Assembly (NCBI GenBank): GCA_049273855.1 | Contig: JBASRN010000295.1 | Span: forward strand, 3,931-67,930 | Direction of reading: 5' to 3' | Origin: Blastocatellia bacterium | GTDB lineage: Bacteria; Acidobacteriota; Blastocatellia; UBA7656 | Length of the DNA stretch: 64,000 nucleotides | Shown here: piece by piece, positions 28,679 through 64,000 of the stretch | How the letters are laid out: each line of letters starts with the position of its first letter | How positions within the stretch are numbered: the first letter of the stretch is position 1 | The notes under the pieces: generated by a model | Seen by the model: the letters and a program-made list of their open reading frames with translations, nothing else | Told to the model about the DNA's origin: nothing | Database searches by the model: none | Program-made: the position numbers and the translations under genes

Positions 28679-28720
28679 GAGAACAACAGGCCACGCGGTG
28701 GACAACGTGACGCAGCCTGA

Positions 28721-28761
28721 GCGCCGGCCGCGAACTTTCTTCGCGGCCGGCGCGTTGTGTT
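28721..28761 (+). terminator. perfect 14-bp stem / 5-nt loop hairpin followed by GTTGTGTT (intrinsic-terminator-like)
   Basis: GCGCCGGCCGCGAA-CTTTC-TTCGCGGCCGGCGC directly after the NTF2-like gene stop and upstream of paralog 4. Confidence 0.55.
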
Positions 28762-28814
28762 AGAATGCAAGCCGGCGGCGAACGCCGCCTCAAACCACCC
28801 CGAGGTTTTAGAGT

Positions 28815-30464: not shown

Positions 30465-30522
30465 CTGAGTCTCGCACAGGAAGGGTCGTTAGTTTCAGAA
30501 CTCGATACTGGAGGAGAATACG

Positions 30523-31755
<1,233 letters not shown>

Positions 31756-31799
31756 CAGCGGTCTGATTCTCTTCGGTTAGAACCTCGTTTAGGATTGAA

Positions 31800-31832
31800 G
31801 GGCCGATTCAACCTGTCCGGTTGAATCGGCCC
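31800..31832. other. perfect 14-bp stem / 5-nt loop hairpin immediately 5' of paralog 6
   Basis: GGGCCGATTCAACC-TGTCC-GGTTGAATCGGCCC. No U-tract follows. It ends 1 nt before the ATG at 31834. Confidence 0.5.
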
Positions 31833-31833
31833 G

Positions 31834-49406: not shown

Positions 49407-49581
49407 ATTACCCTCCCAGGTTGTAAACAACTTCCGTTAGTGTGGCGAAGAAAGCCCGCTAGCCTCGGGGAAGAGTTGAGTTCTGTAAAAACTCGGCAGG
49501 CGAGCCGAACGCAGAATATCACGAGAGTACTACCGCATCAATACAGACTCGCGGACATACAGACTCGCGGAAGAGGGGCAA

Positions 49582-52179
49582 TCACTTTGCCGGGATGACA
49601 CTGACAAAGCTAACGATGAACTCTTCGTCTTCAATCGCGCCGAAGCCTATCCGACCGTTTGAAAAAGCTGTGTCGGTCGTGAGACTGAAAGGCTGCGGCT
49701 GTGTAGCCTTGGGATTGCTTTTCAGCTGAATTGAGTGCTTGATCTCGGAGCCGCGGGCCTCGACGATTATGTGAAACTTGTCGCCGGGTATGCTCAGGTT
49801 CTCGGGCACCCGAAGGAGCTTCAGCAGCTTTGACTGCCCTTCCTGATAGAGGAAGGTCCGAAATACGTTTGGCGTCGCGGCGTTAGGACCCGTCAATTGG
49901 AACAGGTAGTAACTCTGTTGGTCCTGGGCGCGAAGGATCCAAACAGCGCCCTTTCCATTCGCGAAGCTGACGTCGAACGCCATCCTGAAATCCTTATAGT
50001 TCGCGTCCTTGATTAGCCCTATGCCCTTCCCCTGTACTCGTAGCTTGCCCGGGCCGGCCTGCCAGGTGGGCGGCGCGTTCCAGGCAGCCGCTGCACCCGT
50101 AAAGTCATCGACAAACTCGGGTGAGAATACCACGCGCGCGAGCGGCAGCTTCAGCTCGGCCGAGCCCACGCTGAACACTTGTAACTTCTCGACCGGCTGG
50201 TATTCATTCTTCTTGATCTTGATCCTGTGTTGCCCCGGAGCGAGGCTCAGCACCTTCAGATCACCTTTTTCGTTGGCGCGCCCACCATAGTTATCGTCGA
50301 TGTAGACTTCGGCCTCCGGTTCCGTCCTCACTATCAAGTTTGCGACTGCCGCTTTGAACTCGGTCGGGATGTACTTGGTCTTGCCGCCTTCGACTTCTAT
50401 GTCCCTGGCCCATTCGTTCTGGTTTGCTTGCACGACCTTGAGCTTGTGCGAGCCAGCAGGGATTTCAAGGAACTCGATCAGCTTGTCTTCACGCTTCACG
50501 TTGAACTTAACGGGCCTTTGTCCGTCGATCAGAACAGTCGCGTCGGGTTCGACGGGGCCTATTTGTACTGAACCGACCAGCGGAGTCAGGTCCACGTTAA
50601 CGGCGTAATCGGTGTCCAGCTTTACTCCCTCCACTCGCCTTGATGCGTACTTGGCCGCGCTCACTTCTATGTCGTAGACGCCAGGGACAAGCTCGGCTCG
50701 AAATTTTCCCTCGGCAGTGCTCTGGCCGCTGATTGATCTTACGGTCGGATCCCTCGGCTTGATAGCGATGCCGGCGGCCGGGGCATTCGTCAGCACGATC
50801 AATACGCCCTTGCTTTGCTTCGGAGGCGCTGAGTCTGTTTTTGGCGTTGGAGGCGGGGGCGGTTGAGTGCGTCTGATGGCCAGCTCGGCGTAGCGGCCGT
50901 TGGGGTATTCCCTCAGATAAATTTGGTAATCAGTGGTACTTTTGGTAGTTTGGATTCTCTCCCAGAGCGAATCTTCAGCCAGCATCACGGCGAGCCTGGC
51001 GTTTTTCCCGTTGGGATAAGTCTTGAGATAGCGTTTGAAGTCTTCGGGGTCTCTGCTGCTTCGTATGGCTTCCCAGGAGGCTTCTTCGGCGAAGACACCA
51101 CTGGGATACTTTCTGAGGTACTCGCGATAACTGGCAACGTTGGCGATGGCCTGGGCTTGTTGCCAGGCATCTCGTTCGATCGACCCGCGGTCGGGTATAG
51201 AGACATCTTCCGCGGCAGCGGTTTTTGCCAGTACCAGGTCGCTCGCCTTGTAGCCCTGAATCACGGCGAACGGTCTCTGCATCTTCCCTGAGCCCAGATC
51301 GAGTTGTATACGCTTGGGCACGGTATCCTGAAGAAAACTAACCAGCCCGCTCAGCGTGACCTCGCCGTTGGGATTCGCCGCGGCGCCTTTCAACCCCTCC
51401 ACAAGCGCCCAGGTGAAGTAGCCTTCCTTCTTTTCGGTGTATTCGTATGCGCGATGACCAACCTCGGTGGCGTACAGTGTTGCGAAAGCCTGGATCTCGA
51501 CATTCCGTTCCTCGAAGTTGAACGCTTGCGTATAGCGTTTTGTGAGCGGGTTGTCCGAGTCACCACGCCCGGCGGAAGGATCGTTTCGACACGCGTCCAA
51601 GATCATCACCACCTGTCCGACCCCGGTCTGGACGATCCTCTTGCGCATCTCTTCCACGTTGATGGCGGTGTCTTCCAGAAGGGTGACGTCGCCGCTCACT
51701 TGAGCATCAGACGGCAGCAGGTAGGCCTGTCCTTCGCGCTCGATTCCGTGGCCCGCGAAGGCCACGAGAAGCAGTCCATCTTTTGGGGCGGCAGTGCGAA
51801 GATTTGAAAGCCTGCGCAGGATGTTTCCTCGGGTGGGTCTGCGCTCCGCGGGTTGATCACCAGTCAGCAGAACTACCTGATCTCTCGGAAAACCGGCGTA
51901 CTGGATCAGCGCGTCGACGATTGCCTTGGCGTCGTTGGTCGCGCCTCCGAGTCTGTTGATCTGGGCATCCTGATACTCGTCTACGCCGATGACGAGCGCA
52001 AAACGTTTTGAGCTGTTGGGTAGAGACACCACGGTCGCGGATGGCCGAACTCGCATTCCACGCCCGTCCTTTGGTGCTTGAGCGCTGTGGCTCATCCCAC
52101 CGCCCGAAACCGCGCAACCGCAAATCAAGAACGCAATTATCAGGAGGTTGGATCGGATGTGAGGACGTTTGGCTATCAT
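49582..52179 (-). CDS. caspase-like (peptidase C14) domain protein with C-terminal PEGA/CarboxypepD-like and DUF1080-like domains, secreted/lipoprotein
   Basis: Caspase His-Cys dyad context (FAGHG...ILDACRND). N-terminal signal/lipobox-like LICGC. C-terminal LamG/DUF1080-like region. Confidence 0.7.
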   Translation of the reverse strand: MIAKRPHIRSNLLIIAFLICGCAVSGGGMSHSAQAPKDGRGMRVRPSATVVSLPNSSKRFALVIGVDEYQDAQINRLGGATNDAKAIVDALIQYAGFPRDQVVLLTGDQPAERRPTRGNILRRLSNLRTAAPKDGLLLVAFAGHGIEREGQAYLLPSDAQVSGDVTLLEDTAINVEEMRKRIVQTGVGQVVMILDACRNDPSAGRGDSDNPLTKRYTQAFNFEERNVEIQAFATLYATEVGHRAYEYTEKKEGYFTWALVEGLKGAAANPNGEVTLSGLVSFLQDTVPKRIQLDLGSGKMQRPFAVIQGYKASDLVLAKTAAAEDVSIPDRGSIERDAWQQAQAIANVASYREYLRKYPSGVFAEEASWEAIRSSRDPEDFKRYLKTYPNGKNARLAVMLAEDSLWERIQTTKSTTDYQIYLREYPNGRYAELAIRRTQPPPPPTPKTDSAPPKQSKGVLIVLTNAPAAGIAIKPRDPTVRSISGQSTAEGKFRAELVPGVYDIEVSAAKYASRRVEGVKLDTDYAVNVDLTPLVGSVQIGPVEPDATVLIDGQRPVKFNVKREDKLIEFLEIPAGSHKLKVVQANQNEWARDIEVEGGKTKYIPTEFKAAVANLIVRTEPEAEVYIDDNYGGRANEKGDLKVLSLAPGQHRIKIKKNEYQPVEKLQVFSVGSAELKLPLARVVFSPEFVDDFTGAAAAWNAPPTWQAGPGKLRVQGKGIGLIKDANYKDFRMAFDVSFANGKGAVWILRAQDQQSYYLFQLTGPNAATPNVFRTFLYQEGQSKLLKLLRVPENLSIPGDKFHIIVEARGSEIKHSIQLKSNPKATQPQPFSLTTDTAFSNGRIGFGAIEDEEFIVSFVSVIPAK

Positions 52180-52376
52180 CTAAGAACTAGCTCAGGGCTC
52201 TCCTTGCTTGTTGCTTCCAGCTTAATAGCGCTTCCGTGACCTGTCAATATGAGTAAAGAAGGTGCTCTCAACTCGTTGACTCGTCGATCTCCCCCGTGTA
52301 TTGTCATCGGAATCATCGAAGATCTGTTTTGAGCACGCAGAACCTCGACGTTCTGTTCGCTACGAAGGCGATTCCC

Positions 52377-54794
52377 ATGCCGCGTGAACACAAGAGCCGC
52401 CGCGAGGTCATTGACGCGATCCGCGAACTTCCATCAACCAGCGAGCTTCTGTCGAAGCACGACGGTCACTTCGACCACGAGCTGGATCTGGAAGTCACCG
52501 TGTATGGCCGCAACTACGGCGGGAAGAAAGTCGGTCCTTACGTACGGTTGCTGACATTCGAGCCGGGCGAGGCCATAGTCACCGAGGGCGAGTGGGGTGG
52601 AAATACGTTCTTTGTGGTGGTGCGCGGCGTGGCCGAGGTCTTCATCGTTACACCGAATAATCAGACTGTGAAAGTAGCTGAGTTGAAGCCGGGGACTCAG
52701 TTTGGCGAGATGAGTGTGCTGGCGGGCGTGCCGCGGAGCGCGACGGTCAAAGCTCCGGCGGGCGGCACGGCGCAGATCCTGGAGATTCAGCGGCCGGCTC
52801 TGCGTCTGCTTCGAAAGCTTCCGGCGTTCGGGGAGGCTCTGGATTCATCTTATCGGTCTCACGGCCGCGACAACATAATCGAGGAACTCAAGCAGGTGGT
52901 CTCGCTGACGCCGCAGATGACTCGGGACCTAAAGACCCTCGCCGCGTTCCGCGTCTTTAGCAAGAATCATGTCCTCTTTCGCGAAAAGGTAGCCGTCGAT
53001 CAGATCTACTTCATAAAGCAAGGTTGGATGCGACGTTCGGAGCAGCCTGACAGCGAAGACTTTCTGGGCCACGGCTTCTGGTTTGGTATCGAAGGGATCT
53101 TGAAGGAAGCTGTGTGGCCGTATTCAGGGACGCTTATGGGACGCACCGAGGTCCTGGAGGTCTCTATCAAGCGGCTGCGCCAGAATGCGCCGCTGCGCGA
53201 GACCCTGGAGCGCGAGCTTATGCGCTTCAGCCCTCCGCGCTTCGGTGCGCTGGTGAGTTCGGTAGCGGCCGTGCGCGAGAAGGAAACCGAGGCCCAGAAG
53301 ACCCTGATCGAAACCGGCCTGGTCGATGCGACCAATCTCCTGGTGATGGACATGGAACTGTGCGTGCGGTGCGGCAACTGCTCGCTCGCTTGTCACAAGA
53401 TCCACGGACAGTCGCGGCTAATGCGTCACGGGATACACGTGACCCGGCTCGAGCGGCCCAGCCCGCGCGCGACTCAAAGCGTGCTCTCACCCGCGGTCTG
53501 TATGCACTGCCAGGATCCGGAGTGTTTGACGGGATGTCCCACCGGAGCTATTGGTCGATTCGGTGGTGGCCACATAGACATCGATGCCAAGACCTGCATC
53601 GGATGCGGTGATTGCGCGACTCAATGCCCCTACAACGCGATCTCGATGATTTCGCGCAAAGGACAGAGCGCGCCTGCGGGTGCGAAGGGTGTTGCATGGA
53701 AGCTTCGCGATTTCCTGCGGCTGACCCCCGACCCGCTTCCCGCTGCTATTGACGCAACGGACGATTTGATGGCGGTGAAGTGCAACCTCTGCAGCGGGAC
53801 TTCGATGAACCCGGCGGGGAGCAAAGAGCCGGCTTACGGTTGTGAAGAGAATTGCCCGACCGGCGCGCTTGCCCGCATCAACCCTCAGGAGTACTTCACC
53901 GAGATCGGCCGTATCGAAGGATTGTTGATGAGGGACCAGACTCACGCCATCGGCCGAAACATCCATCGATCTGATCCGCCTCGGAGAATGATCCACCTGG
54001 CTGGCATCGGTCTGACGGTTGTACTGGCGGCAGTTGCCATAATTGGCATAAGCGAGTTCGGATTGGGTCAGCGGTTGGTGGGCTTTCTCAACATGAGATG
54101 GATCACCGGGCTGGTGGGTCTTTTGGGTATCGCGGCGGTCATGACTTATCCGGTTCGGCGCCAGGTCTATACGAAGCGAAAGGGCGCATTGCGGTATTGG
54201 ATGCTCGCGCATGCCTACGCTGGAGTCATCGCGGGAATAATGATACTTCTGCACGGAGGCACGGATTCGGGCGGCGCGTTGACGACCGTCCTGATGATCT
54301 CTTTCGACCTGGTGGTGCTGACGGGTCTGTTTGGGATCTTCTGCTACCTGGTGGTGCCCCGTCTGCTGACGAGAATCGAAGGCGAGCCATTGTTGATAGA
54401 TGATCTGCTTGCGCGGCGGACTGAACTGCAAAATGAGGTCCGCGACATAGCTGCTTCGTCCGCGGAACCTGTCAAGAAGGTCGTCACTCGGGCGGTGTCA
54501 CGCTACTTGACTTTCGGCTATCTGGTGAAACAGTACCTTTCGCGAGCGCCGCTTGCCGAAATGGTGGAATCGGCTCGGCGCGAGTGTCAACGGGACGCTG
54601 AGACGCTGCCGAACCCGTCGGATCGCAGCAAGTTTGACCGGGCGGTCGCAGCCGCCGCCACGCTGCGGCGACTCGATGCGCTTATCCTGCTCCACCGCAC
54701 GTTAAAGTTGTGGCTGGTGCCTCACGTGGTCTTTACCTCGTTAATGTTAGCGCTGATGCTTGTTCACATCGTACAGGTTATCTATTTCGCCTGA
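52377..54794 (+). CDS. dual cyclic-nucleotide-binding domain protein fused to four 4Fe-4S ferredoxin motifs and a C-terminal polytopic membrane domain
   Basis: Two cNMP-binding beta-barrels (GxxFGEM...). CVRCGNCSLAC, CMHCQDPECLTGC, CIGCGDCATQC and CNLCSG...CEENC clusters. About 5 TM helices at the C-terminus. Confidence 0.75.
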   Translation: MPREHKSRREVIDAIRELPSTSELLSKHDGHFDHELDLEVTVYGRNYGGKKVGPYVRLLTFEPGEAIVTEGEWGGNTFFVVVRGVAEVFIVTPNNQTVKVAELKPGTQFGEMSVLAGVPRSATVKAPAGGTAQILEIQRPALRLLRKLPAFGEALDSSYRSHGRDNIIEELKQVVSLTPQMTRDLKTLAAFRVFSKNHVLFREKVAVDQIYFIKQGWMRRSEQPDSEDFLGHGFWFGIEGILKEAVWPYSGTLMGRTEVLEVSIKRLRQNAPLRETLERELMRFSPPRFGALVSSVAAVREKETEAQKTLIETGLVDATNLLVMDMELCVRCGNCSLACHKIHGQSRLMRHGIHVTRLERPSPRATQSVLSPAVCMHCQDPECLTGCPTGAIGRFGGGHIDIDAKTCIGCGDCATQCPYNAISMISRKGQSAPAGAKGVAWKLRDFLRLTPDPLPAAIDATDDLMAVKCNLCSGTSMNPAGSKEPAYGCEENCPTGALARINPQEYFTEIGRIEGLLMRDQTHAIGRNIHRSDPPRRMIHLAGIGLTVVLAAVAIIGISEFGLGQRLVGFLNMRWITGLVGLLGIAAVMTYPVRRQVYTKRKGALRYWMLAHAYAGVIAGIMILLHGGTDSGGALTTVLMISFDLVVLTGLFGIFCYLVVPRLLTRIEGEPLLIDDLLARRTELQNEVRDIAASSAEPVKKVVTRAVSRYLTFGYLVKQYLSRAPLAEMVESARRECQRDAETLPNPSDRSKFDRAVAAAATLRRLDALILLHRTLKLWLVPHVVFTSLMLALMLVHIVQVIYFA

Positions 54795-54820
54795 ATCGCC
54801 GGCTTTTGCAGGAATTGACG

Positions 54821-57800
54821 ATGGCCGCTAAGAACAGATTCATAATCAAGCGAAACGATTTGACCGTTGATGACGTCGTTGTCGAGAGCGAAGGCCTGAC
54901 GATTGGGCGGCTGATTAGCAATGATCTTTCGCTCAATCACAGGACCGTGTCTCGCACACACGCCGGCATAAAAGAATTCAACGGCGAGTATTGGATATTC
55001 AACCTTTCGTCTTCGAATGGAACGGTGTTGAATGGCGAGCTAGTGGATAGGACTCCGCTGGCTGACGGCGATGTTCTGCAGATCGGCCGTTACATTCTCA
55101 GGCTTAAATACGTCCAGGACGCTCTGGCAGTTACGGTGGAGATGGAGCCGGAGGCTCAGTTGCAGGACGCGCACGCCGCCGCCGTTCCTACTCCTGCCCA
55201 GGCCCCGGCCCCGGACGAAGCCGGCCAGGCCACCCAGGTCTTTCGCCGCGTCGCAGCTCAACCTCCCAAGGCTCCAACCAGGCAGCTACGTGGCACAGGT
55301 CTCCTGACCGGCGTGCTGGCCCCTCAGGCCGAGCAGGCCCTCATGGTCTTCTGGGAGAAGCGAAAGCGAGAAGCCGGCAAGATCGCCGAGAAGTCGCTGC
55401 TGCATCCCCGAGGCGACCGGCGAGTCGGCAAGTCCCAGTTCAATTGGCGGCCTACGCGAGACCTGCAAAAGCTATGGCGCAAATCGTACTTTGCGTGGGG
55501 CGTTGTAATCGTGGCGGTCGTATCCACCGTCGCATTGTTTGCTCACAGCGATGCTTACTCTCCGGGCGTCATTTCGTCGCCTCACACCGCCACTCAAGTA
55601 AGCGAGCGTGGTATCGCCTTGCGGGCGAACGGCGGCTCATGCACTGAGTGTCACGGCGCAACCACCAGCATTCAAGCCAACTGCACCAGCTGCCATCAGA
55701 CGCAGGCGTTCGAACCTTCCGTTTCCAAAGTCCATACGGACGGCGGGCTCACCTGCGTGAGCTGTCACGGTGAGCACATGGGCGCGAGCTTTCGTCCCGG
55801 TCTTGTTGGCTCGGCTATGTGCGTCAGCTGTCACAACGACACATACAAGTTCAAAGGCCAGCCGATTGGCTCTCCGCATGGGGGCTCGGTGGGGTACCCG
55901 GTAGTCAATCGTCAGTGGCAGTGGACCGGTCTTTCCGAAGCCTCGTGGTCCAAGAAGCGACTTCCAGACACCGCCTCGAAGTACACGCCGCTCGAGCAAT
56001 TCCACGTCCTCCATGTCTCCGGCAGGGAGGAGGGCCGTACTAACTGCACGGATTGTCACTCGGCTGGTCTTCATACCGAAGAAGGACTGCATCAGTCGCC
56101 ACGCGCCACTTGCGCGGCGTGTCATAGCACAACGTTCGACGCGGGAGGAGCGATCTTCGGGCCGAATTGCACTTCCTGCCACGTCCAGCACGGTGGCGAG
56201 AAGGACCTAGTCGCTGCCCTGCGGGTCTCATCGGCGATTGAGGATCAATCGGGCTCTCAAGCGAGTGCTGCGAACATCCCGCAGATTGGAAGTGGCGGCG
56301 CCCAGGTGATTCGTCACGACGACACCGGGGCAAGGTGGAGCTTGAAGTCGGACTTGAACGTCGGCGGATTGCCCTGGTACGGCTGGGCGGGAATGCTGGC
56401 GGTCGTGCCAGTGCTTGGCGTCGCGTTGCTGGCCGCCAACAGCATCCGTCGAAGGAACTTCCTGGCCGGCCCCGCTTCCGAGGCTACCACTCAGGACGAG
56501 GTTCAAAAAGCGGGCACAAAGTTTCTCGATCTCGCAAAACTCAAAGCCGATGGACCGGCTTATCCACACCCTGTCATCGATCCGGTCCTGTGCATAGGGT
56601 GCCACGCATGCGTTGAAGCGTGCCCTCACGATGTGCTCGCGATAGTCAACGGAGTATCCACACCCGTCGCCCTGGACCAGTGCATGGAGGACACTGGGTG
56701 CACTGTTGAATGCCCGACGAGTCCAAAGGCATGCATCATCATCAACGGCACCAAGAAGATCCCCCCTCGCAAAGTGCCCAGCAGAAACCAGCGCTTGATG
56801 ACAAACGTGCCGGGCGTCTACATGGTCGGCGATGTGTCGGGTGTCCCGCTGATCAAGAACGCGATAAATGAAGGCGCGCAGGTTATCGACTATGTGCTCG
56901 AAGACATTCGGAGCCAGGGTGAGGCGAAGGCAGAATACGATGTGGCAATAGTTGGCGTTGGTCCGGCGGGACTGTCGGCTACGGCCATTGCGAAGCAAAG
57001 AGGCTTGAGGTACATAGCCGTCGAACAGGACAAGGTCGTCAGCACAATTCAAAACTATCCCGCAGGCAAGTATGTCTTCTTCAAGCCTGATACGGTGGAC
57101 GCGAAGGGCGGGGTGCCGCTCGAGGGCGTCGGCAATCAAAGAGAAGTCATCCTGAAATCGTGGATGAACTCGATGATGCAGAATGGGATCGAAGTCAATG
57201 AAGACGAGAGCTGCAAGGACATCAAGAAAGAGGACGGCGTCTTCAAGGTCACGACCGAGGCCGGCAAGCTCAAGGAGAAATCGACATACACAGCTCGCGC
57301 GGTGATTCTGGCGATCGGTAATCGGGGCACTCCAATGAAACTCAGAGTACCCGGTGAAGAGCTTACGATGCGAGTCCAACCCGGGCCGATGGTGGCAAGG
57401 CATTGTCCGCAGTGCGGCCAGCCGCGAAGCGGTCAACAGGTCTTCTGTGTGCGCTGCGGCCAGAAGCTTCCGGTCAGAACACCTCCGCCTTGCGACGACT
57501 CCAAGGTCAAGTACAAGTTGTCGGATCCGGACGACTACGTAAACCAGAAGTGCATCATTGTCGGGGCCGGCAACTCGTCGATCGAGTCCGCCGTTGCTCT
57601 GACCGGGTTCAAGCGCGTGGGCGATCAAGTCACTTTCACTCGTAACAACGAAGTGGCTCTGGTGGTTAGAAGCGATTTCAAGGGCGACTTGAAGCTGGGC
57701 AACAAGATGGACGTGTACGACTGTATGGACGCCGGAAGAATAAAGGTCTTCTTCCGCACCGAGATCAAAGAGATTACCGAGAAGGAAGTTGTGTTGATGG

Positions 57801-57913
57801 ACACGCGCTCGAAAGAGGAGAAGGCCCGGCTGGCAAATGACTACGTATTTGCGCTCATCGGAGGCGAGAAGCCGACAAAGTTTCTTGAAGGCATAGGGAT
57901 CAAGATTGGGTGA
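54821..57913 (+). CDS. FHA domain - TM - heptaheme cytochrome c - TM - 4Fe-4S ferredoxin - FAD/NAD(P) oxidoreductase (with inserted Zn ribbon) fusion protein
   Basis: FHA signature (VSRTHAGI...NGTVLNGE...GDVLQIG). Seven CxxCH motifs. Two TM helices. CIGCHACVEACPHD ferredoxin motif. Two GxGxxG dinucleotide folds. CPQCG...CVRCG ribbon. Confidence 0.8.
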   Translation: MAAKNRFIIKRNDLTVDDVVVESEGLTIGRLISNDLSLNHRTVSRTHAGIKEFNGEYWIFNLSSSNGTVLNGELVDRTPLADGDVLQIGRYILRLKYVQDALAVTVEMEPEAQLQDAHAAAVPTPAQAPAPDEAGQATQVFRRVAAQPPKAPTRQLRGTGLLTGVLAPQAEQALMVFWEKRKREAGKIAEKSLLHPRGDRRVGKSQFNWRPTRDLQKLWRKSYFAWGVVIVAVVSTVALFAHSDAYSPGVISSPHTATQVSERGIALRANGGSCTECHGATTSIQANCTSCHQTQAFEPSVSKVHTDGGLTCVSCHGEHMGASFRPGLVGSAMCVSCHNDTYKFKGQPIGSPHGGSVGYPVVNRQWQWTGLSEASWSKKRLPDTASKYTPLEQFHVLHVSGREEGRTNCTDCHSAGLHTEEGLHQSPRATCAACHSTTFDAGGAIFGPNCTSCHVQHGGEKDLVAALRVSSAIEDQSGSQASAANIPQIGSGGAQVIRHDDTGARWSLKSDLNVGGLPWYGWAGMLAVVPVLGVALLAANSIRRRNFLAGPASEATTQDEVQKAGTKFLDLAKLKADGPAYPHPVIDPVLCIGCHACVEACPHDVLAIVNGVSTPVALDQCMEDTGCTVECPTSPKACIIINGTKKIPPRKVPSRNQRLMTNVPGVYMVGDVSGVPLIKNAINEGAQVIDYVLEDIRSQGEAKAEYDVAIVGVGPAGLSATAIAKQRGLRYIAVEQDKVVSTIQNYPAGKYVFFKPDTVDAKGGVPLEGVGNQREVILKSWMNSMMQNGIEVNEDESCKDIKKEDGVFKVTTEAGKLKEKSTYTARAVILAIGNRGTPMKLRVPGEELTMRVQPGPMVARHCPQCGQPRSGQQVFCVRCGQKLPVRTPPPCDDSKVKYKLSDPDDYVNQKCIIVGAGNSSIESAVALTGFKRVGDQVTFTRNNEVALVVRSDFKGDLKLGNKMDVYDCMDAGRIKVFFRTEIKEITEKEVVLMDTRSKEEKARLANDYVFALIGGEKPTKFLEGIGIKIG

Positions 57914-59475
57914 CGAAGCCCGACGAAGAGATGAAGTACATGCGAAACATCCTTGCGACCGTTTCCTCCTTGATCGTGCTGTGCTGGAGCGTCGCGCAAG
58001 CGCAACAACCGGAGCAAAAGGTTTATTCAGCATCAATCAAGGGCGGTCAGGTCTCGAGCCGGAGTGCGATGCGCGTGGAAGGGGCATACCGCGACATATT
58101 TAACACGAAGCAATGGGGAAACGATTTAGGACACATCTGGAGGGTCTACATTGGGGTTCCGATTAAGTTCATTTGGAGTCACGCCGGCAGATACTCGAAA
58201 GTGGAGCTGGCGGTTCAGGAGCTGTCCCTTTCCGGCGACGGCAAATTGTCTTCGATGCGTGTCAAGGTCAATGGCAGGAAGGCAATTGATTTTGCCGAAT
58301 CGTCCTTCAAGAGGACAATCATCGACATAACAAACTTTGTGGTCCCCGGAGAAAACGTTCTTGAAGTCGCCTCAAAAGAGGGAACGAATCTTCTTCACGG
58401 CGTCCAATCTGTTGAAGTTATTTACCACGCGGCAGCCGACACGGCTCCTCCGCAGGTCACAATCTTCGAGCCTTCGGTTGAGAGAGGGCTGAAGGTTGTT
58501 CGCAAAGAGAAAGCGATAACCGTGAGAGGGCGGGCAACGGATGAAAGCGGGGTCTACGAAGTATGGGTTAATGATGTTGAGGCGAGCCTTTCGGCGAATG
58601 GAGATTTTCAAGCGCAAGTGTTACTGGCCGTCGGAGAAAACCAGATTCGTGTAAGAGCGACGGATACAAAGAAAAACACATCCGAAACTGCGTTTGCAAT
58701 CACCCGCGAATCGGATTCGATAAAGGGTGTGATTCAGCCCGCGGGCAGTGAAGCCGCTTTCATCAGTGGAAGATTCTATGCGCTTATCATCGCGGTGCAG
58801 GACTATCGCGATCCCAGTGTGAATGGCCTGGACCACCCTATTCAAGACGCATCGCGACTGAAAGCCATCCTAACCGGCAACTACAGCTTTGAAGAGAGAA
58901 ATATCATCTTTCTGAGAAACCCAGATCGCGCCACCATTATCGACAAGCTCGACGAATTGACCCGGAAAATAACCGAGAACGACAGCCTGTTGATCTTCTA
59001 TGCGGGGCATGGGTATTGGGATGAAACACTAAAACAGGGATTCTGGCTGCCAAGTAATGCGAAGAGAGACACACGCTCCGAGTGGCTGCCTAACAGCACC
59101 CTGAGAGATTATCTTGGCGGAATCAAAGCAAAGCACACGCTGCTAATCGCGGATGCTTGCTTTAGCGGCAGCATATTCAAGACGCGCGACGCCTTCAGCG
59201 ATGCGCAAGCATCTGTCAAGGAGTTGTATCGGCTGCCCAGTCGCAAAGCGATGACGAGCGGCGCTATGAAGATGGTTCCCGATAAGAGCGTCTTCGTGGA
59301 GTATCTCGTAAAGCGATTGGCTGAGAACCAGCAAAAGTACGTCTCCGCCGAAGAATTGTTCAGCAGTATGCGAAAAGCGATCATCAACAACAGCCCTAAC
59401 AAACAGACCCCGCAATACGGTGAGATTCGGGAGACGGGAGACGAAGGAGGGGACTTTGTTTTCGTGCGGAGGTAG
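57910..59475 (+). CDS. caspase-like (peptidase C14) domain protein, secreted
   Basis: YAGHG...IADACFSG His/Cys dyad. Signal peptide. GTG start overlaps the upstream stop (GTGA). An alternative ATG lies at 57931. Confidence 0.7.
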   Translation: MTKPDEEMKYMRNILATVSSLIVLCWSVAQAQQPEQKVYSASIKGGQVSSRSAMRVEGAYRDIFNTKQWGNDLGHIWRVYIGVPIKFIWSHAGRYSKVELAVQELSLSGDGKLSSMRVKVNGRKAIDFAESSFKRTIIDITNFVVPGENVLEVASKEGTNLLHGVQSVEVIYHAAADTAPPQVTIFEPSVERGLKVVRKEKAITVRGRATDESGVYEVWVNDVEASLSANGDFQAQVLLAVGENQIRVRATDTKKNTSETAFAITRESDSIKGVIQPAGSEAAFISGRFYALIIAVQDYRDPSVNGLDHPIQDASRLKAILTGNYSFEERNIIFLRNPDRATIIDKLDELTRKITENDSLLIFYAGHGYWDETLKQGFWLPSNAKRDTRSEWLPNSTLRDYLGGIKAKHTLLIADACFSGSIFKTRDAFSDAQASVKELYRLPSRKAMTSGAMKMVPDKSVFVEYLVKRLAENQQKYVSAEELFSSMRKAIINNSPNKQTPQYGEIRETGDEGGDFVFVRR

Positions 59476-59530
59476 TGATCAAGCTGCTGGGTTTGACGCT
59501 CTCGGCATAACTCCGCCGCGGGAAGCGCCG

Positions 59531-60364
59531 GTGTCGAGGCAAATAGACCGGCTTAAGAAAGGCGTCGTCTCTTTCTTCCTCGCGGCAGTGGCCCTGTCTG
59601 GCGCGTTCGTTGGAAAGAGCGAGGCTGCGGGTGAACCGGCCTCGCTGTTAATTCAACCCCAAGCCAGCGGCAAATTCGACCATACGTCGCAAAGACACAG
59701 TCAAATTAAATGCGATGTGTGTCATGTGCGAAGGGCCGACGCAGCCAAGCCAGTGCTCCCGGGCCACCGCGCCTGCATATCTTGTCACATCAAAGAGTTC
59801 ACTTCGACGCAGTTCGGCATCTGCTCCAATTGTCACGAAGGTATAAATGCAGTGCAACCAAAAGTGCTGACCTTCCCTGAAAGGCAAACCTTTGGAACCG
59901 AGTTCTCGCACAAGACACACGCGACTTATGTGAGCGGCGAGAAGCGGGCCGATTGCTCAAGTTGCCACGCGGTCGCCGGAGCGAGGACCACATTCCCGGC
60001 GCACCGGGAGTGCTATGTTTGCCATAAGGCTCCCGATCAGGTGAAGGCCGGCGAGAAGGTGGGAGGAGCGAGCTGCGGCGAATGCCATACAACTACCGGG
60101 AATAAGAAGCCGCCCTCCGCGATGAGCAAAGCTTACAATTACAGATTCACCCACCAGGCCCACGTACAGCGCGAAGGAATCGGTTGCACCGAATGTCATA
60201 AGGTGCTCGGTGAGACCGCTGTTCAGGTATCACTGCCGCAACTTAGAGAGCATCGTGGAGCGGCGTTTCAAGGGTGCGGTGGTTGCCACAACGGCAGGCG
60301 AGCTTTCGGCGGTGAACTGGTGAGTAACGCCTGCGCCCGCTGCCACGGAAGAAATATGATGTAG
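59531..60364 (+). CDS. nonaheme c-type cytochrome (c3/c7-like), periplasmic
   Basis: Nine CxxCH motifs in about 280 aa. Putative GTG start with a signal peptide VVSFFLAAVALSGAFVG. The track ORF at 59420 overlaps the upstream gene. Confidence 0.7.
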   Translation: MSRQIDRLKKGVVSFFLAAVALSGAFVGKSEAAGEPASLLIQPQASGKFDHTSQRHSQIKCDVCHVRRADAAKPVLPGHRACISCHIKEFTSTQFGICSNCHEGINAVQPKVLTFPERQTFGTEFSHKTHATYVSGEKRADCSSCHAVAGARTTFPAHRECYVCHKAPDQVKAGEKVGGASCGECHTTTGNKKPPSAMSKAYNYRFTHQAHVQREGIGCTECHKVLGETAVQVSLPQLREHRGAAFQGCGGCHNGRRAFGGELVSNACARCHGRNMM

Positions 60365-60568
60365 CGATCTTGTGGCAGTCCGCGATAGTTTTGTTGCGAC
60401 GACCGTACATATTCATTCCATTGAATTTTTCCGGAAGAAAAAGCGACATTGCGCTGGTGAGGGCTAACTAGCGATTGCCTTCATACGATTCGGACGTTAT
60501 AGTAGGGCCGGAAAATTCTTGTCGGAATACGCAGCAGCGAACTTGTAACCGGGTTTCGGGAGGTCGGA

Positions 60569-61360
60569 ATGATCAAACGCTTCAAGCTAACCTTTTTTGC
60601 TCTCTTCTGTTTTGTGGTTGGCGGTCAGTTCGTCTGGACGAGCGCGCAGGAGATGCCCGCCGAGAAGGCATTCAAAAACATTCAGGCGCTCAAGGGCATT
60701 CCGGCAAGCCAGATAACCCCGTTCATGGATAATTTCAACAAGGCCCTTGGGGTCAGCTGCGACTATTGCCACGTGCCGAACGCTCTCGAGAAAGGCGACA
60801 AGGCTGCCCATAAGATGTCAATCCAGATGATCAAGATGACGCGCGACATCAATCAGCGTTACCAGATCAACATCGATTGCATGTCGTGCCATCAGGGCAA
60901 GAACAAGCCGCCGCACCTTGGCCAGAGCATGAAGTTTGGGCCGGGCGGAGCCGGGGCGGGGGGCGGCCGGGACCTGTCGCAGAAAGTCCCGGACGTCGTT
61001 ACTAAGACCACCACGACCCCGCCTAAGACAACGACTCCGACCACCCAACCAACTGCTAACACCGCCGAGGCCAAAGCGGAACCGGACCCTCCCGGCAAGG
61101 TGGTCTTCAAAGCCAGCTTCGGTGCGGTTGCCTTCGATCACGGGCAACATATGAATGTCGGCGATTGCGCCAAGTGCCACCACACTGGCGAAAACAACAA
61201 GTGTGATACTTGCCATCTGCACAACAAGAAGGCGAGCGCGGCGACTCAAGTATCGTTTTATGCCGCGTCGCACGGGACCAAGAGCGAGAGATCATGCACA
61301 GGATGTCATCTGCAATCGAAGGCCGGTCCCACAAAATGCGCCGAATGCCACAAGAAGTGA
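60569..61360 (+). CDS. pentaheme c-type cytochrome (reaction-centre-cytochrome-like N-terminus + triheme c7-like C-terminus)
   Basis: Signal peptide. CDYCH, CMSCH, CAKCHH, CDTCH and CTGCH/CAECH motifs. T/P-rich linker. Confidence 0.7.
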   Translation: MIKRFKLTFFALFCFVVGGQFVWTSAQEMPAEKAFKNIQALKGIPASQITPFMDNFNKALGVSCDYCHVPNALEKGDKAAHKMSIQMIKMTRDINQRYQINIDCMSCHQGKNKPPHLGQSMKFGPGGAGAGGGRDLSQKVPDVVTKTTTTPPKTTTPTTQPTANTAEAKAEPDPPGKVVFKASFGAVAFDHGQHMNVGDCAKCHHTGENNKCDTCHLHNKKASAATQVSFYAASHGTKSERSCTGCHLQSKAGPTKCAECHKK

Positions 61361-61480
61361 AACGTCCGGCGTGAATCCAGTCGGACGAATCGGCTCGTGC
61401 GTTGACTTAATATCCGAAAGAGAATATTTTCTTGCGGTCGCCAGGTGACGGCAGGTCGGTGTTGTATCCAGGAGGAGAAC

Positions 61481-64000
61481 ATGGACGGGCGGATGCGCGC
61501 AAAGTTGGCCGTTTTGCTCTTTCTCGGCTGCATCTTCTCGCTCCTATGGCTTCCCAACAGCGCAGGGAAAGTACCCCGTCGGGCCGCTTCGTCCGGCAAC
61601 CCGCACACGACGCCGGAAAGCCTCGACCCGATCAGCTTTCATGGTTCGGCCGCTGGTCCCGACCATAAACAGAGCTCGGCTATCTCTTCATCTCAAGTCG
61701 GTGCAGACGCGCTTTTGGGGGGGACCTGCATCAATTGCCACGTGGGCATAACGCCCGCTCATACCAAGACGGCGCTCAAGTGCACCGACTGCCACGGTGG
61801 CAATGACACGGTCAATACGGGACCAAATCCCAATATTCGCGACAAGAATTTGATGAGCCAGGCTCACGTGCGCCCGAAGAATCCAAAGTTTTACTGGGCC
61901 AACGGAATAGATGATGCGTTCGCGGGAGCACCGGGCAAGGGCGACACGGAGTTTGACGTTTTCAACAATAACCTTGACCCGGTTGACAACAACAATCTGA
62001 TCGGCACGCACGTAGACGCGGAATACAGCCGTGACCTGAACTATGTTCGATTCATAAACCCAAGCGACTATCGTGTGGCGATGGTGAGCTGCGGAAGCCA
62101 ATCTCCGGCCGGTTCATCAATGTCCTCCTGTCACGGGAACATCGTGGAGGTGGCCCGCAAGAGCATCATGGCGAATAATCAAGCACAGTTCGCCACAGCC
62201 ACCTACGCCAATCACGCGCCGCTTGGTTCGACCAACGCCAACCCGTTGGGAACCAACCCGACCGGGCGCCAGAACCCAAGGGACGGAGAGGTGGGCGTGA
62301 ATGTCAATTACGATGACATTGACGGCGCTTATGATCCGAAGACCAATCGATTCGACAGCGCCAAGCTCCTGGCTATCGCCCGAAGCGATGACGATCCCTT
62401 CAATGACAACTTCGAAGCCATCGGTGCGCCTCTCGTCGATAAGGACGGTCAGAAGAAGACGGCCGTCCACGGGAGCAGCACGTTGCCCCCTTCACCCCCG
62501 ACCAACCGGTTGCGCGGAATTGGAGGCAAGCGGATCGTCGCCGCTGCGCTGCCGCGCGCGCAGAAGCAGATATTTTCCTGGCCTCGCCGCGACTCACAGG
62601 CAAATCCCAACGACCCATCATCAGCGCTGATCAAGACGGTCCTCGATCTTTACGGATTCAACGACACGGTCGGGCATCAGCCGATCGATGCCGGCTTCAA
62701 CGCCGTGCGCGCCTTTGACCCCGGTCTGTTCCCTGACAACAATCAGAACTTCCCCTTCCCGTTCGATGACAATCGACCCGACCGCATTCAGCTCGCGCAG
62801 GCCCGTAGAACCGCCAATGTGAACGATCAGAAAGAGTTCGTGCCGCCCAACCCTTTCAACCGCAATCGCAACAGCGGCTGCGCTTCGTGCCATATGCTCT
62901 ACCGGCCTGACGGCCACAACGAGGAGCCTTTCGATAAGACCGTCAGGGAGAATGGCAGACAGATAACCACCGATACGGTCACGGGCCAGCGTGAAGACCA
63001 GGGCGAGCGCGGCTATCCCGCGATTCACCAGTTGACGACGAAGATACCCACCAACCAGTGTGGCATCTGTCACGTCTTCACGACCAGAGTTGACGTGGCA
63101 TTCAAGGGAACTTTTGAGGTTGAAAACAACAACTTCAACTTCCGCTGGTCTACCGCCGCAGACGCGACGGGCAAGAACATCCCGTTCCAGTTCACCAACA
63201 CCAAGGGAACCAAGGTGAATATGTTCGATAACTTTGTGACGGTGGACGTCAATGGCCAGGTCCTTAAAGATAAGGACGGCAGAGGGGATGGGGAAGGCGT
63301 ATCGGAAGACCTCAATAACAACGGCATACTCGATTCCGGCGAGGATAAGAACAACAACGGGATGCTTGATATTCCCGACCGGCTCCAGCGCTCGGACGCG
63401 CAGGATGGTCGGCAGATGCGCATTATGTACGGCGGGGCGACCGGAAACGTTCGCTTGATGGACATTCATCTTGAAAAAGGGATGGAGTGCATTGATTGCC
63501 ACTTCTATCAAGACCTTCACGGCGATGGCAACATTTATACACGCAACTGGGACGCGATAGAGATAGAGTGCCAGGATTGTCACGGGACGGCGAAGAAACT
63601 CGCTACGCTGAAAACATCAGGCCCGAACGGCAACAATGATCTGAGGCAATCCATGGACGAAAACGGCACTCCCTTCTTCGAGATTCGCGGAGATGGATCC
63701 AGGATACAGCGCTCGCGAGTGAGAGATGGGCTTTTCTGGCGGATTCCGCAGGTCAAAGAAGCGATAACGAGGGGGAACCAACACTTCAACAGGGATGCTT
63801 TTGAAGCGATGGGCCAGAAGTCCGTTTCAAACCCGAAAGAGTTTGCGCATATCAACAACAGCAGGGAACAAGGCAAGGTAGAGTGCTACACCTGTCACAA
63901 TGCAGCCACGCCCAGTTGCTTCGCCTGCCACTACACGCAGGACTATTTCCCGAAGGTCACACCGGGCAGCACGTTAGAGATAAACAACCAACCGCGGCGC
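61481..64000 (+). CDS. large multiheme c-type cytochrome (5'-partial within window; continues beyond 64000)
   Basis: Open frame from ATG 61481 to the window end with no stop, at least 840 aa. Signal-anchor LAVLLFLGCIFSLLW. At least 8 CxxCH motifs (CINCH, CTDCH, CASCH, CGICH, CIDCH, CQDCH, CYTCH, CFACH). Confidence 0.7.
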   Translation, partial: MDGRMRAKLAVLLFLGCIFSLLWLPNSAGKVPRRAASSGNPHTTPESLDPISFHGSAAGPDHKQSSAISSSQVGADALLGGTCINCHVGITPAHTKTALKCTDCHGGNDTVNTGPNPNIRDKNLMSQAHVRPKNPKFYWANGIDDAFAGAPGKGDTEFDVFNNNLDPVDNNNLIGTHVDAEYSRDLNYVRFINPSDYRVAMVSCGSQSPAGSSMSSCHGNIVEVARKSIMANNQAQFATATYANHAPLGSTNANPLGTNPTGRQNPRDGEVGVNVNYDDIDGAYDPKTNRFDSAKLLAIARSDDDPFNDNFEAIGAPLVDKDGQKKTAVHGSSTLPPSPPTNRLRGIGGKRIVAAALPRAQKQIFSWPRRDSQANPNDPSSALIKTVLDLYGFNDTVGHQPIDAGFNAVRAFDPGLFPDNNQNFPFPFDDNRPDRIQLAQARRTANVNDQKEFVPPNPFNRNRNSGCASCHMLYRPDGHNEEPFDKTVRENGRQITTDTVTGQREDQGERGYPAIHQLTTKIPTNQCGICHVFTTRVDVAFKGTFEVENNNFNFRWSTAADATGKNIPFQFTNTKGTKVNMFDNFVTVDVNGQVLKDKDGRGDGEGVSEDLNNNGILDSGEDKNNNGMLDIPDRLQRSDAQDGRQMRIMYGGATGNVRLMDIHLEKGMECIDCHFYQDLHGDGNIYTRNWDAIEIECQDCHGTAKKLATLKTSGPNGNNDLRQSMDENGTPFFEIRGDGSRIQRSRVRDGLFWRIPQVKEAITRGNQHFNRDAFEAMGQKSVSNPKEFAHINNSREQGKVECYTCHNAATPSCFACHYTQDYFPKVTPGSTLEINNQPRR

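Follow-up and report, generated by a model that had tools for sequence, protein, structure and literature searches.

A seven-gene locus with redox, signalling and caspase-like proteins

The window analyzed here is a 64,000-nt stretch of DNA from the soil bacterium Blastocatellia bacterium GCA_049273855.1 (Bacteria; Acidobacteriota; Blastocatellia; UBA7656 in GTDB), contig JBASRN010000295.1, forward-strand positions 3,931-67,930. A preliminary description had placed seven consecutive genes at its end, which we designate B to H. All were found at the claimed place and in the claimed order, and Pfam annotation confirmed their claimed domains with minor corrections:

Gene B, 49582..52179, minus strand: divergent gene, probably for a lipoprotein, with Pfam Peptidase_C14, CarboxypepD_reg and PEGA domains
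Gene C, 52377..54794, plus strand: 805 aa from the conserved ATG at 52377 (ORF 52296-54794); core component 1
Gene D, 54821..57913, plus strand: 1030 aa from the conserved start; core component 2
Gene E, 57931..59475, plus strand: exported Glucodextran_B and Peptidase_C14 (Pfam) caspase-like protein
Gene F, 59532..60364, plus strand: secreted nine-heme c7/c3-type cytochrome
Gene G, 60569..61360, plus strand: secreted six-heme cytochrome
Gene H, 61478..64000, plus strand: large multiheme cytochrome, incomplete at the window end

The CXXCH motifs of these proteins far exceed chance, residue shuffles giving an average of 0.01-0.06 per protein. F has the nine that had been claimed, matches Pfam Cytochrome_C7 (64 bits) and NCBIfam nanowire_3heme (42.7 bits; cut-off 40), and most likely starts at the GTG at 59532, not at 59420. 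G, described earlier as a pentaheme cytochrome, has six; two hemes are predicted in an N-terminal CytoC_RC-like part (Pfam CytoC_RC, 41 bits) and four in a C-terminal c3-type part (Cytochrom_CIII, 65 bits). H carries eight up to the window end, consistent with the claim of at least eight hemes, as well as a possible lipoprotein signal; its full-length orthologs are 1545-1586 aa long, with LVIVD repeats and faint matches to MtrC/MtrF domains. Cytochromes like F, G and H come after D in the closest relatives: F directly follows D in five related loci (L084, L085, L001, L004 and L005), and G is kept in close relatives. The window holds no porin gene; in L084 and L085, H is followed by a gene for a 616-639-aa putative barrel with a signal peptide, then by one for an MtrC/MtrF-domain cytochrome. 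The putative barrel of the H-relatives matches MtrB_PioB weakly (E 0.0099, below cut-off). Among the 39 loci with at least 6 kb on both sides of the C-D pair, further multiheme genes adjoin the pair in 22, and none is nearby in the other 17. Thus, an extracellular conduit is not a constant partner of C and D.

Both caspase-like proteins scored well above the Peptidase_C14 cut-off of 21.4 bits (B, 74 bits; E, 61 bits) and contain the AGHG and DAC motifs of the His/Cys dyad; matches to NCBIfam caspase_w_EACC1 were below cut-off. They are only 26% identical to each other over 144 aa. The Peptidase_C14 and PEGA domains attributed to B stood, but the "LamG-like" end gave only a sub-threshold match to 3keto-disac_hyd (E 0.05). 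E had been described as translationally coupled to D through a GTGA overlap. Because E orthologs begin at MK..R, corresponding to the ATG at 57931, 17 nt after the D stop codon, this ATG is the likely start, and the GTGA probably is not; this GTGA also occurs in the nearest relative, where it stands before F.

The view of the caspases as partners of the cluster held only in part. E has a 100% identical counterpart in an NCBI Blastocatellia MAG, and in both L093 and L094 an ortholog with 70-72% identity separates D from F; a B ortholog (73%) occupies the same divergent position in L094, but most loci have neither gene. In L084, L085 and L093 no B gene lies upstream of C, and E is missing from L084, the nearest relative (D 93% identical), as a clean 1.6-kb indel. 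B and E recur as accessory genes within a single Blastocatellia sub-clade and are not core components. That they are nonetheless integral processing partners of the conduit seems doubtful to us. Four related loci (the window, L094, L093 and L001) have caspase genes within the cluster or next to it, with three different architectures among them, one of which is seen in L001 and L093; elsewhere in 1.5 Mb of related flanks, such genes are rare. Full-length matches spanning the N-terminal ~180 aa of E are limited to P0405 and P0407-P0409, with P0407 and P0409 confirmed inside the cluster and P0408 presumed to be. A protease that matures a multiheme cytochrome also has a precedent, reportedly, in Geobacter OmcZ/OzpA. 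Against this, caspase genes are missing from the nearest relative, from L085, L004 and L005, and from about 80 other species-representative loci; distant E-family members are not near cytochromes, and the Glucodextran_B-caspase module is widespread in unrelated contexts.

Conservation and variants of the C-D pair

Co-occurrence supports a conserved redox unit: C lies directly 5' of D, in the same orientation, in 64 of the 66 related loci with enough upstream DNA, usually with a gap of 4-150 nt. The pair is present in more than 80 species-level genomes, mostly of Blastocatellia, Pyrinomonadaceae and Chloracidobacterium. More than 120 orthologs of C (63-93% identity) and more than 120 full-length homologs of D (48-93% identity) were found. 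The pairing persists in four loci where the membrane domain of C is only ~28% identical (L086, L090, L091 and a JGI contig), all of which keep a D-like protein with FHA domain, TM helix, 6-7 CXXCH motifs, second TM helix, ferredoxin and Pyr_redox parts. Such distant versions of the pair adjoin MtrC-like cytochromes and putative barrels. In two of them, L090 and the JGI contig, Ser/Thr kinase genes overlap or flank the pair, and the L090 pair is surrounded by kinase and GGDEF/response-regulator genes.

Both proteins also occur in pieces. In L088, L091 and L092, two genes take the place of C, one for a cNMP-FeS protein and, directly after it, one for a free-standing homolog of the membrane domain. 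D is split just before its second TM helix in many relatives. Thus, C and D consist of separable modules that travel together. In the Nitrospinae variant (L092), a Fer4 and Glu_synthase protein takes the place of the Pyr_redox flavoprotein.

Domain architecture of C and D

The following features were assigned within the two core proteins:

C first cNMP-binding domain, 52554..52805, plus strand: Pfam stretch 87-170, with canonical phosphate-binding cassette FGEMSVLAGVPRSAT
C four-cluster ferredoxin domain, 53343..53870, plus strand: DmsB/NrfC/FdnH/DsrO type, predicted cytoplasmic
C membrane domain, 53973..54791, plus strand: five helices with four invariant His; predicted di-heme b transmembrane wire
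D FHA domain, 54899..55087, plus strand: Pfam FHA, 58 bits (cut-off 20.7); predicted cytoplasmic phospho-threonine reader
D TM1-heptaheme-TM2 region, 55487..56437, plus strand: TM1 55487-55543 and TM2 56381-56437, from hydropathy and motif scan
D ferredoxin and flavoprotein, 56567..57910, plus strand: 8-Cys ferredoxin and FAD/NAD(P)-type flavoprotein, predicted cytoplasmic

In Pfam, C matches cNMP_binding twice (88 bits) and Fer4_11/Fer4_7 above cut-off. The first cNMP domain carries the motif FGE...PR.AT, with F136, G137, E138, L142, G144, R147, A149 and T150 conserved at 95-100% and both the Glu and the Arg of the cassette present; the second is degenerate and has no R-x-A cassette. Sixteen cysteines form four [4Fe-4S] cluster motifs (C356/359/362/366, C402/405/410/414, C434/437/440/444 and C496/499/516/520), and all 16 are 100% conserved in 62 orthologs. 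PDB matches of this ferredoxin domain are to ArrB, PsrB-type NrfC and HycB, and the matches to NCBIfam DsrO, ArrB, TtrB and DmsB were all below cut-off.

The five hydrophobic helices at the C-terminal end of C fit its description as a polytopic membrane protein; the idea of a plain anchor did not hold, as the domain contains four conserved histidines. These are arranged as an H-x13-H pair on TM3 (H639 and H653) and another on TM5 (H810 and H824), and show no variation in the 62 orthologs or in a family of 35 members with 25% identity. Sub-threshold matches to DUF4405, Ni_hydr_CYTB and Ferric_reduct were obtained for 17, 13 and 8 of the 35 family members, respectively (best E 4e-5). The C protein of the window itself gave no match above cut-off to these three families or to any other heme-b family in Pfam or NCBIfam. 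Alignment of its membrane domain with E. coli MsrQ and YodB by hhalign was not significant, and a profile search of PDB sequences returned nothing relevant. A confident structural model of the domain is a helical bundle, as in solved di-heme b cytochromes, and the fold of the model matches CybB, NOX and STEAP. Heme b binding by DUF4405 has been shown by experiment, that of DUF4405 and FezC having been established by expression and pyridine hemochrome or spectra (PMC11334425). Judging from the conserved histidines, the recurrent sub-threshold matches and the model, the "membrane anchor" of C is very probably a di-heme b cytochrome, which would make C, not D, the likely wire across the membrane. 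Four-histidine membrane proteins like this domain constitute an unnamed family with more than 1400 cluster representatives.

D consists of an FHA domain, TM1, a heptaheme loop, TM2, a ferredoxin with two [4Fe-4S] clusters and a Pyr_redox flavoprotein with a zinc ribbon insert. The FHA domain, for which the PDB matches are GarA and OdhI, has its phospho-threonine-binding residues G30, R31, S45, H48 and T69 invariant and N67 nearly invariant in our alignment of D homologs (A1), in which the seven CXXCH motifs and the Fe-S cysteines are likewise invariant. All seven motifs (ORF residues 311, 325, 349, 371, 446, 468 and 487) lie between the TM helices at ORF residues 260-278 and 558-576; an eighth candidate heme site, CIGCH, was rejected because it belongs to an Fe-S motif. 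In the flanks of the helices, five K/R residues precede TM1 and none follow it; one K precedes TM2 and three R follow it. Hydropathy and the positive-inside rule, the only means used to assign heme topology, agree with the claimed arrangement, with the hemes predicted outside and the FHA, ferredoxin and FAD parts inside.

The C-terminal part of D matches Pfam Fer4, Pyr_redox_3 (114 bits) and Pyr_redox_2 (86 bits), and its eight Fe-S cysteines and two GxGxxG/A Rossmann motifs are invariant. The nearest families of the flavoprotein are YpdA/Bdr (TIGR04018) and TrxR, but D falls below the family cut-offs (142 bits vs 340 for TIGR04018; 60 vs 343 for TRX_reduct). In TrxR the redox-active cysteines form a CxxC motif, and in YpdA the redox-active cysteine is that of a GxGPCG loop. 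The D flavoprotein lacks the CxxC redox disulfide, with no conserved CxxC beyond the zinc ribbon, and has GVGPAG at the place of the YpdA loop. Judged by its sequence, it shares the fold class of these enzymes, not their disulfide chemistry, and family membership suggests NAD(P)H as its substrate. The earlier picture of a trans-envelope path through FAD, Fe-S and hemes agrees with the predicted cytoplasmic FAD/Fe-S part and outer hemes of D; however, D has no cofactor inside the membrane, and the most likely crossing is via the di-heme b domain of C.

Proposed mechanism and comparison with known systems

We think it probable, with moderate confidence, that C and D constitute a two-protein inner-membrane redox module that links cytoplasmic NAD(P)H to multiheme cytochromes of the periplasm, with no obvious step through quinone. 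In the scheme that we infer, which assumes contact between C and D, NAD(P)H would reduce the FAD in the C-terminal flavoprotein of D, and electrons would pass through the two [4Fe-4S] clusters of D to the four of C. They would then cross the membrane via two b-hemes held by the four histidines of C, with H639/H810 placed near the cytoplasm and H653/H824 near the periplasm, and be handed to the seven c-hemes that the two TM helices of D keep at the outer face. Next in line would be the cytochromes F and G, both soluble, and the large H; in relatives, the chain may continue to the putative outer-membrane barrel and MtrC-like cytochrome. Flux could be gated by cAMP/cGMP, acting through the cNMP-binding domains of C, and by Ser/Thr-kinase signalling, acting through the FHA domain of D. 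Such gating, already proposed in the preliminary description, is plausible: the cassette and FHA residues are conserved, and kinase genes adjoin the pair in two distant relatives. B and E may act on the exported cytochromes. The fullest form of this proposal, in which C and D are a quinone-independent, NOX-like NAD(P)H:multiheme oxidoreductase that is switched post-translationally by cNMP and Ser/Thr kinases, is serviced in one sub-clade by its own exported caspase-like proteases and exports electrons to extracellular acceptors, is more tentative, and we regard it as possible. A point against an export module is that NAD(P)H-driven electron export dissipates membrane potential.

The b-heme domain of C might instead oxidize quinol or reduce quinone, like FdnI, NarI and CbcL, with quinol feeding the hemes of D; the cytoplasmic Fe-S/flavin arm would then not carry out bulk NAD(P)H oxidation but serve another reaction, or confurcation. 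We judge this unlikely: six Fe-S clusters and a flavoprotein are invariant on the cytoplasmic side, which is hard to explain with quinol as the sole donor, and no quinone-site motif was identified.

Slightly less likely still is that the same hardware runs in reverse and takes electrons from donors outside the cell or in the periplasm (Fe(II), reduced humics or partner cells) to NAD(P)+ or ferredoxin. The cofactor chain is symmetric, its sequences fix no direction, and porin-cytochrome systems run either way (Mto/Pio vs Mtr); however, inward electrons would oppose the membrane potential, reduction of NAD(P)+ requires very low-potential donors, and the conserved pair has no energy-coupling subunit. 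The most likely flow is outward, with Fe(III), Mn(IV) and humics as examples of extracellular or periplasmic acceptors.

A sensor, in which the hemes report periplasmic redox state and the Fe-S, FAD, cNMP and FHA parts relay it to cytoplasmic signalling, would suit the two kinds of signalling domain in the pair, the regulatory genes around the L090 pair and the near half of loci without adjacent multiheme partners, but is very improbable, as fifteen predicted redox centers plus FAD in two proteins would be excessive, no output domain (kinase, cyclase or DNA-binding) is fused to C or D, and FHA and cNMP-binding domains are readers, i.e., inputs rather than outputs.

If the NAD(P)H-linked export module is real, it would provide for export of reducing equivalents in abundant, nominally aerobic soil Acidobacteriota; given the number of species-level genomes that encode the pair, it may matter for the redox cycling of Fe, Mn and humics in soils and wastewater. 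With readers for cNMP and phospho-threonine built in, such a module would suggest that cells can gate electron export in the manner of a signalling output; among entry points to extracellular electron transfer, it would be the first to be gated by second messengers. The analysis also defines the unnamed family of four-histidine membrane proteins and offers a concrete mechanism, open to testing, for the ptd-type clusters, of which little has been described.

The locus had been presented as an undescribed system. Its only described relative is indeed of unknown function, but that relative, the ptdABCDEFG operon, was already reported in a 2023 preprint: it encodes a cNMP/4Fe-4S protein, a ferric-reductase-like membrane protein, an FAD/NAD(P) oxidoreductase, multihemes and a porin, and Acidobacteriota are among its carriers (bioRxiv 10.1101/2023.11.21.568154). 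The kit of parts is the same, and split arrangements with homologs of the C membrane domain occur in L088, L091 and L092. Likened by description, the PtdE-like and PtdF-like parts are fused into one polypeptide in C, and the cNMP-binding PtdE has two clusters whereas C has four. The D flavoprotein is Pyr_redox/YpdA-like and shares its chain with a ferredoxin, a membrane-anchored heptaheme part and an FHA domain; FHA is unmentioned in the ptd preprint (10.1101/2023.11.21.568154). Heme counts differ as well (7 in D, 9 in F, 6 in G and at least 8 in H), and the penta-, tetra- and deca-heme plus porin set of ptd was not matched within the window.

C and D differ from NOX, SpNOX, STEAP and MsrQ in having no Ferric_reduct match at cut-off and no FNR-type dehydrogenase domain; six Fe-S clusters are interposed, and electrons are predicted to pass to a chain of c-hemes instead of straight to O2 or Fe(III). 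Relative to FdnH/FdnI and DmsB/NrfC/HybA-type proteins, the predicted topology of C is inverted, with cytoplasmic Fe-S clusters and no Tat signal; also unlike them, C combines its parts with cNMP domains in a single chain and lacks a molybdoenzyme partner. The Tmc and Hmc complexes of sulfate reducers join periplasmic multiheme c cytochromes, via a membrane cytochrome b, to cytoplasmic Fe-S proteins. They have HdrD-like CCG proteins and lack both a flavoprotein/NAD(P)H arm and signalling domains; the HmcA, TmcA and DsrO models gave weak matches to G, F and C, all far below cut-off.

Like CbcL, ImcH, CymA and the Mtr/Pcc systems, the module has a membrane-anchored multiheme that would feed periplasmic and outer cytochromes, and the resemblance to Mtr/Pcc extends to the MtrC/MtrF-domain cytochromes and putative barrel of relatives. 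To our knowledge, the inner-membrane entry points characterized so far for extracellular electron transfer (CymA, ImcH and CbcL) all draw on the quinol pool. Those three are quinol dehydrogenases, whereas here a predicted cytoplasmic flavin/Fe-S arm is built in; a direct link from NAD(P)H to periplasmic multihemes via Fe-S clusters and a di-heme b wire would, if true, be a different solution from quinol entry.

Gene content of the redox cluster

All seven genes named in the preliminary description were recovered by ORF listing and translation, and the domains it claimed have Pfam matches above the curated cut-off. Its observation is thus confirmed, and its interpretation, a trans-envelope electron conduit gated through cyclic-nucleotide-binding (cNMP) and FHA domains, is borne out in part. 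The genes, designated B to H, are as follows.

B, 49582-52179, minus strand: caspase-like protein with Peptidase_C14, CarboxypepD_reg and PEGA domains (Pfam, above the curated cut-off)
C, ORF from 52296, conserved start 52377, end 54794, plus strand: two cNMP_binding domains and Fer4 families (Pfam), with a membrane domain
D, conserved start 54821, end 57913, plus strand: FHA, Cytochrome_C7, Fer4 and Pyr_redox_3/2 domains (Pfam)
E, 57931-59475, plus strand: caspase-like protein with Glucodextran_B and Peptidase_C14 domains (Pfam)
F, probable start 59532, end 60364, plus strand: cytochrome of a c7/c3-type family, nine CXXCH motifs
G, 60569-61360, plus strand: cytochrome of a c7/c3-type family, six CXXCH motifs
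H, from 61478 past the window end, plus strand: cytochrome of a c7/c3-type family, eight CXXCH motifs in the visible part

A motif scan assigned seven CXXCH motifs to the heme module of D and one more to an Fe-S motif; residue shuffles place the chance expectation at about 0.01-0.06 per protein. The counts agree with the nine hemes described for F and the at least eight for H, whereas G, described as a pentaheme cytochrome, is a hexaheme one. Three further details were revised. The caspase and PEGA parts of B stand, but its supposed LamG-like end has only a sub-threshold 3keto-disac_hyd match; E, thought to start in a GTGA overlap with D, has its conserved start at an ATG 17 nt past the D stop codon; and the start of F is probably 59532. 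A promoter and terminator scan stayed at chance level and has no bearing on operon structure.

The 45 kb upstream of the cluster hold unrelated genes, including those for a beta-lactamase and PPDK. Six consecutive plus-strand genes of similar size at 23663-33180 (472, 488, 482, 549, 410 and 448 aa) look like a tandem paralog array; four have weak Cu2_monoox_C matches, and one has a DUF3471 match too. They are followed at 33388-34518 (plus strand) by a gene for a 376-aa protein in which TIR_2 is fused to NTP_transferase.

Conservation of the C-D pair and its neighbors

More than 120 full-length homologs of D were found at 48-93% identity, nearly all from Blastocatellia/Acidobacteriota metagenome-assembled genomes (MAGs) and annotated solely as NAD(P)-binding protein or thioredoxin reductase. 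The seven CXXCH motifs, the eight cysteines of the ferredoxin part, the two Rossmann motifs and the phosphothreonine-binding residues of the FHA domain are invariant or nearly so in an alignment of 11 sequences. The families nearest to the flavoprotein part are YpdA/Bdr and TrxR, but it scores far under their cut-offs and is without their redox cysteines. Homologs from MAGs titled Clostridia, Heliobacteriaceae or Heliomicrobium (loci L005, L014, L033, L042, L044, L046, L048, L050, L056, L064 and L074), titles that look like mislabels, are 50-67% identical to D and keep the C-D synteny.

The window proteins were compared by BLAST to all ORFs in 80 loci, from a scan with one genome per species. 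A same-strand C gene lies immediately 5' of D in 64 of the 66 loci with sufficient upstream DNA, and on this synteny chance adjacency of the two genes was rejected; L025 and L080 carry C, and only L003 and L038 are without it upstream of D. In many genomes D is encoded as two genes, with the break just before its second transmembrane helix and sometimes with an unrelated gene between the halves (a PIG-L deacetylase in L047, 11489-12499; an AAA+ ATPase of AAA_2/ClpB-D2-small type in L055, 11456-12754; a rhomboid protease in L041, 7379-9769). Because the C-D synteny holds while the neighbors vary, we take C and both halves of D to be the conserved core. In one Blastocatellia MAG (L001, 9413-9913) a Y1_Tnp (IS200-like) transposase gene sits between C and D. 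In L003, a TPR and CHAT (caspase-related) protein is encoded about 2.7 kb downstream (15849-19166), and F420 biosynthesis genes lie upstream.

The multiheme genes are among the variable neighbors. L001, L004, L005, L084 and L085, the closest relatives, have genes like F, G and H 3' of D; many other loci have them before C, and 17 of 39 loci with at least 6 kb on both sides have no further multiheme gene nearby. The H protein of relatives has 1545-1586 aa with LVIVD repeats; its gene is followed by those for a putative barrel, with a weak MtrB_PioB match (E 0.0099), and for an MtrC/MtrF-domain cytochrome. In the window, B adjoins a minus-strand gene at 45672-49430 for a 1252-aa TonB-dependent-like outer-membrane protein (CarboxypepD_reg, Plug and OMP_b-brl_4). 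Similar proteins are encoded near D in several loci, including L036, L055 and L065, and may simply be common in these genomes.

A pair of C-like and D-like genes is kept even where the membrane domain of C is just ca. 28% identical (L086, L088, L091 and L092). L086 has three c7-type multiheme genes and one gene each of C-like and D-like type, the product of the last comprising three to four FHA domains, a transmembrane helix, seven CXXCH motifs, a second helix, a ferredoxin and a flavoprotein; downstream are genes for an MtrC-like protein with 15 hemes and for a putative barrel with a C-terminal Phe. C is represented by two genes in L091 and L088, one for a cNMP-FeS protein and one for the membrane part by itself, and an FHA protein comes after them. 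In L092 (166-4776), from a Nitrospinae MAG, a Fer4 and Glu_synthase (FMN-type) protein replaces the Pyr_redox flavoprotein; the genes that follow encode the cNMP-FeS and four-His membrane parts as separate proteins and a cytochrome with nine hemes, and the cluster has no FHA domain.

The caspase-like proteins, B and E, share only 26% identity across 144 aa, and no homolog of either occurs in the approximately 80 species-representative loci, save for a WD40 and Peptidase_C14 protein within the L001 cluster. The nearest relative, L084 (ca. 90% identical in nucleotide sequence), differs at E by a clean 1.6-kb indel and has no B upstream of C. Recent insertion of E was dropped as an explanation, since syntenic orthologs came to light: in both L093 and L094 an E ortholog (70-72% identity) separates D from F, and in L094 a B ortholog, 73% identical, occupies the matching divergent position. 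L093 has a WD40-caspase in addition. Loss in L084 is thus more parsimonious, and the caspases were probably lost there. On this evidence they are recurrent accessory genes of one sub-clade and stand outside the core. Protease processing of a cytochrome has a precedent in OmcZ/OzpA, and by this analogy we would guess that the caspases process exported cytochromes.

E is 100% identical to a Blastocatellia MAG protein at NCBI, which assigns the window to this acidobacterial class. Its distant Glucodextran_B-caspase relatives are widespread and located away from cytochromes. A metagenome scan with E as single query gave no match, and one with an alignment returned only distant relatives of the caspase module in unrelated contexts. 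Residues 1-180 of E (window 57931-58470) have no Pfam match and are covered in full only in P0405 and P0407-P0409, of which P0407 and P0409 are confirmed in-cluster; other family members match the Glucodextran_B and caspase part only. In B, three tandem copies of Y-[LK]-x-x-Y-P-x-G-x-x-A, recognized by eye at residues ca. 340-440 (window 50900-51200) and without a Pfam match, separate the caspase and CarboxypepD_reg domains.

Membrane domain of C

D alone was rejected as a transmembrane wire, as its two helices are without conserved cofactor ligands, leaving C as the only plausible wire across the membrane. In 62 C orthologs, the 16 Fe-S cysteines and four histidines (H639, H653, H810 and H824) are 100% conserved. 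The histidines are spaced H-x13-H on TM3 and again on TM5; given an Fe-S domain on the inside, the positive-inside rule would place one His pair, with a member from each helix, near either membrane face. An exhaustive HMMER search with the 293-residue domain yielded 1424 cluster representatives, among them proteins that consist of this domain alone (265-320 aa) and others of cNMP-Fer4-TM type (717-787 aa). The only invariant columns in 35 sequences with 25% mean identity are R82, W96, H100, H114, G138, W267, H271 and H285, which include the four conserved histidines.

No Pfam family matches the domain at cut-off. Below cut-off, DUF4405 was found in 17 of the 35 members, Ni_hydr_CYTB in 13 and Ferric_reduct in eight; experiments have shown DUF4405 to be a membrane cytochrome that binds heme b and has four histidines at its center (PMC11334425). 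The predicted model matches the folds of plant b561, STEAP1/4, Dcytb, cytochromes b6/b, HyaC, FdnI and DUOX1. A profile of the family produced only coiled-coil noise against PDB sequences, and hhalign comparisons with E. coli MsrQ and YodB were not significant, the MsrQ alignment pairing the W..H...H helix of C with the H-x12-H helix of MsrQ. Conserved sequence and predicted fold make a di-heme b cytochrome probable rather than proven, as generic four-helix bundles score alike and the MsrQ, YodB and PDB profile tests were negative.

Proposed electron path and relation to known systems

Entirely from sequence, synteny and predicted fold, we infer a concrete and testable path. NAD(P)H would reduce the FAD of D, from which electrons would pass to the two [4Fe-4S] clusters of D and on to the four of C, cross the membrane from the inner to the outer heme b of C, and reach the seven c-hemes of D and then F, G and H. 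The sequence leaves the direction unfixed, and inward flow and a quinone-linked role are the rivals; thermodynamic and electrophoretic considerations from established bioenergetics lead us to favor outward flow.

The first cNMP domain of C retains the canonical phosphate-binding cassette, and the FHA domain of D its phosphothreonine-binding residues. Two distant relatives have kinase genes at the pair. In L090, a Ser/Thr kinase gene (Pkinase and PEGA, 8037-10004) shares 4 nt with the beginning of the C-like gene, and a cluster on a JGI contig (3300047160) ends with a Pkinase gene; the D-like proteins of both have two to four FHA domains. Together this supports, short of demonstration, kinase input.

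Full-text searches of the literature returned no FHA-multiheme-flavoprotein and no C-D pair in Acidobacteriota. The view that the system is not a described one is only partly right, as a related kit of parts appears in one preprint, the sole related description in the literature searched (10.1101/2023.11.21.568154). Its ptdABCDEFG operon, of function not known, is carried by marine Proteobacteria, Nitrospirales and Planctomycetes and by further groups, Acidobacteriota among them, and encodes a pentaheme, a porin, an FAD/NAD(P) oxidoreductase, a tetraheme, a 4Fe-4S protein that binds cNMP, a membrane protein resembling ferric reductases and a decaheme. Compared by description, the two systems appear to have this kit in common; in the window, however, C unites the PtdE-like and PtdF-like parts in one chain, the FHA, heptaheme, ferredoxin and Pyr_redox flavoprotein parts form one protein, D, and the heme counts differ. 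In function the module would resemble a NOX/ferric reductase with an Fe-S extension, or an inverted FdnH/FdnI, but falls outside these families by their membership tests. The window system is thus a variant of the barely described ptd-like kind.
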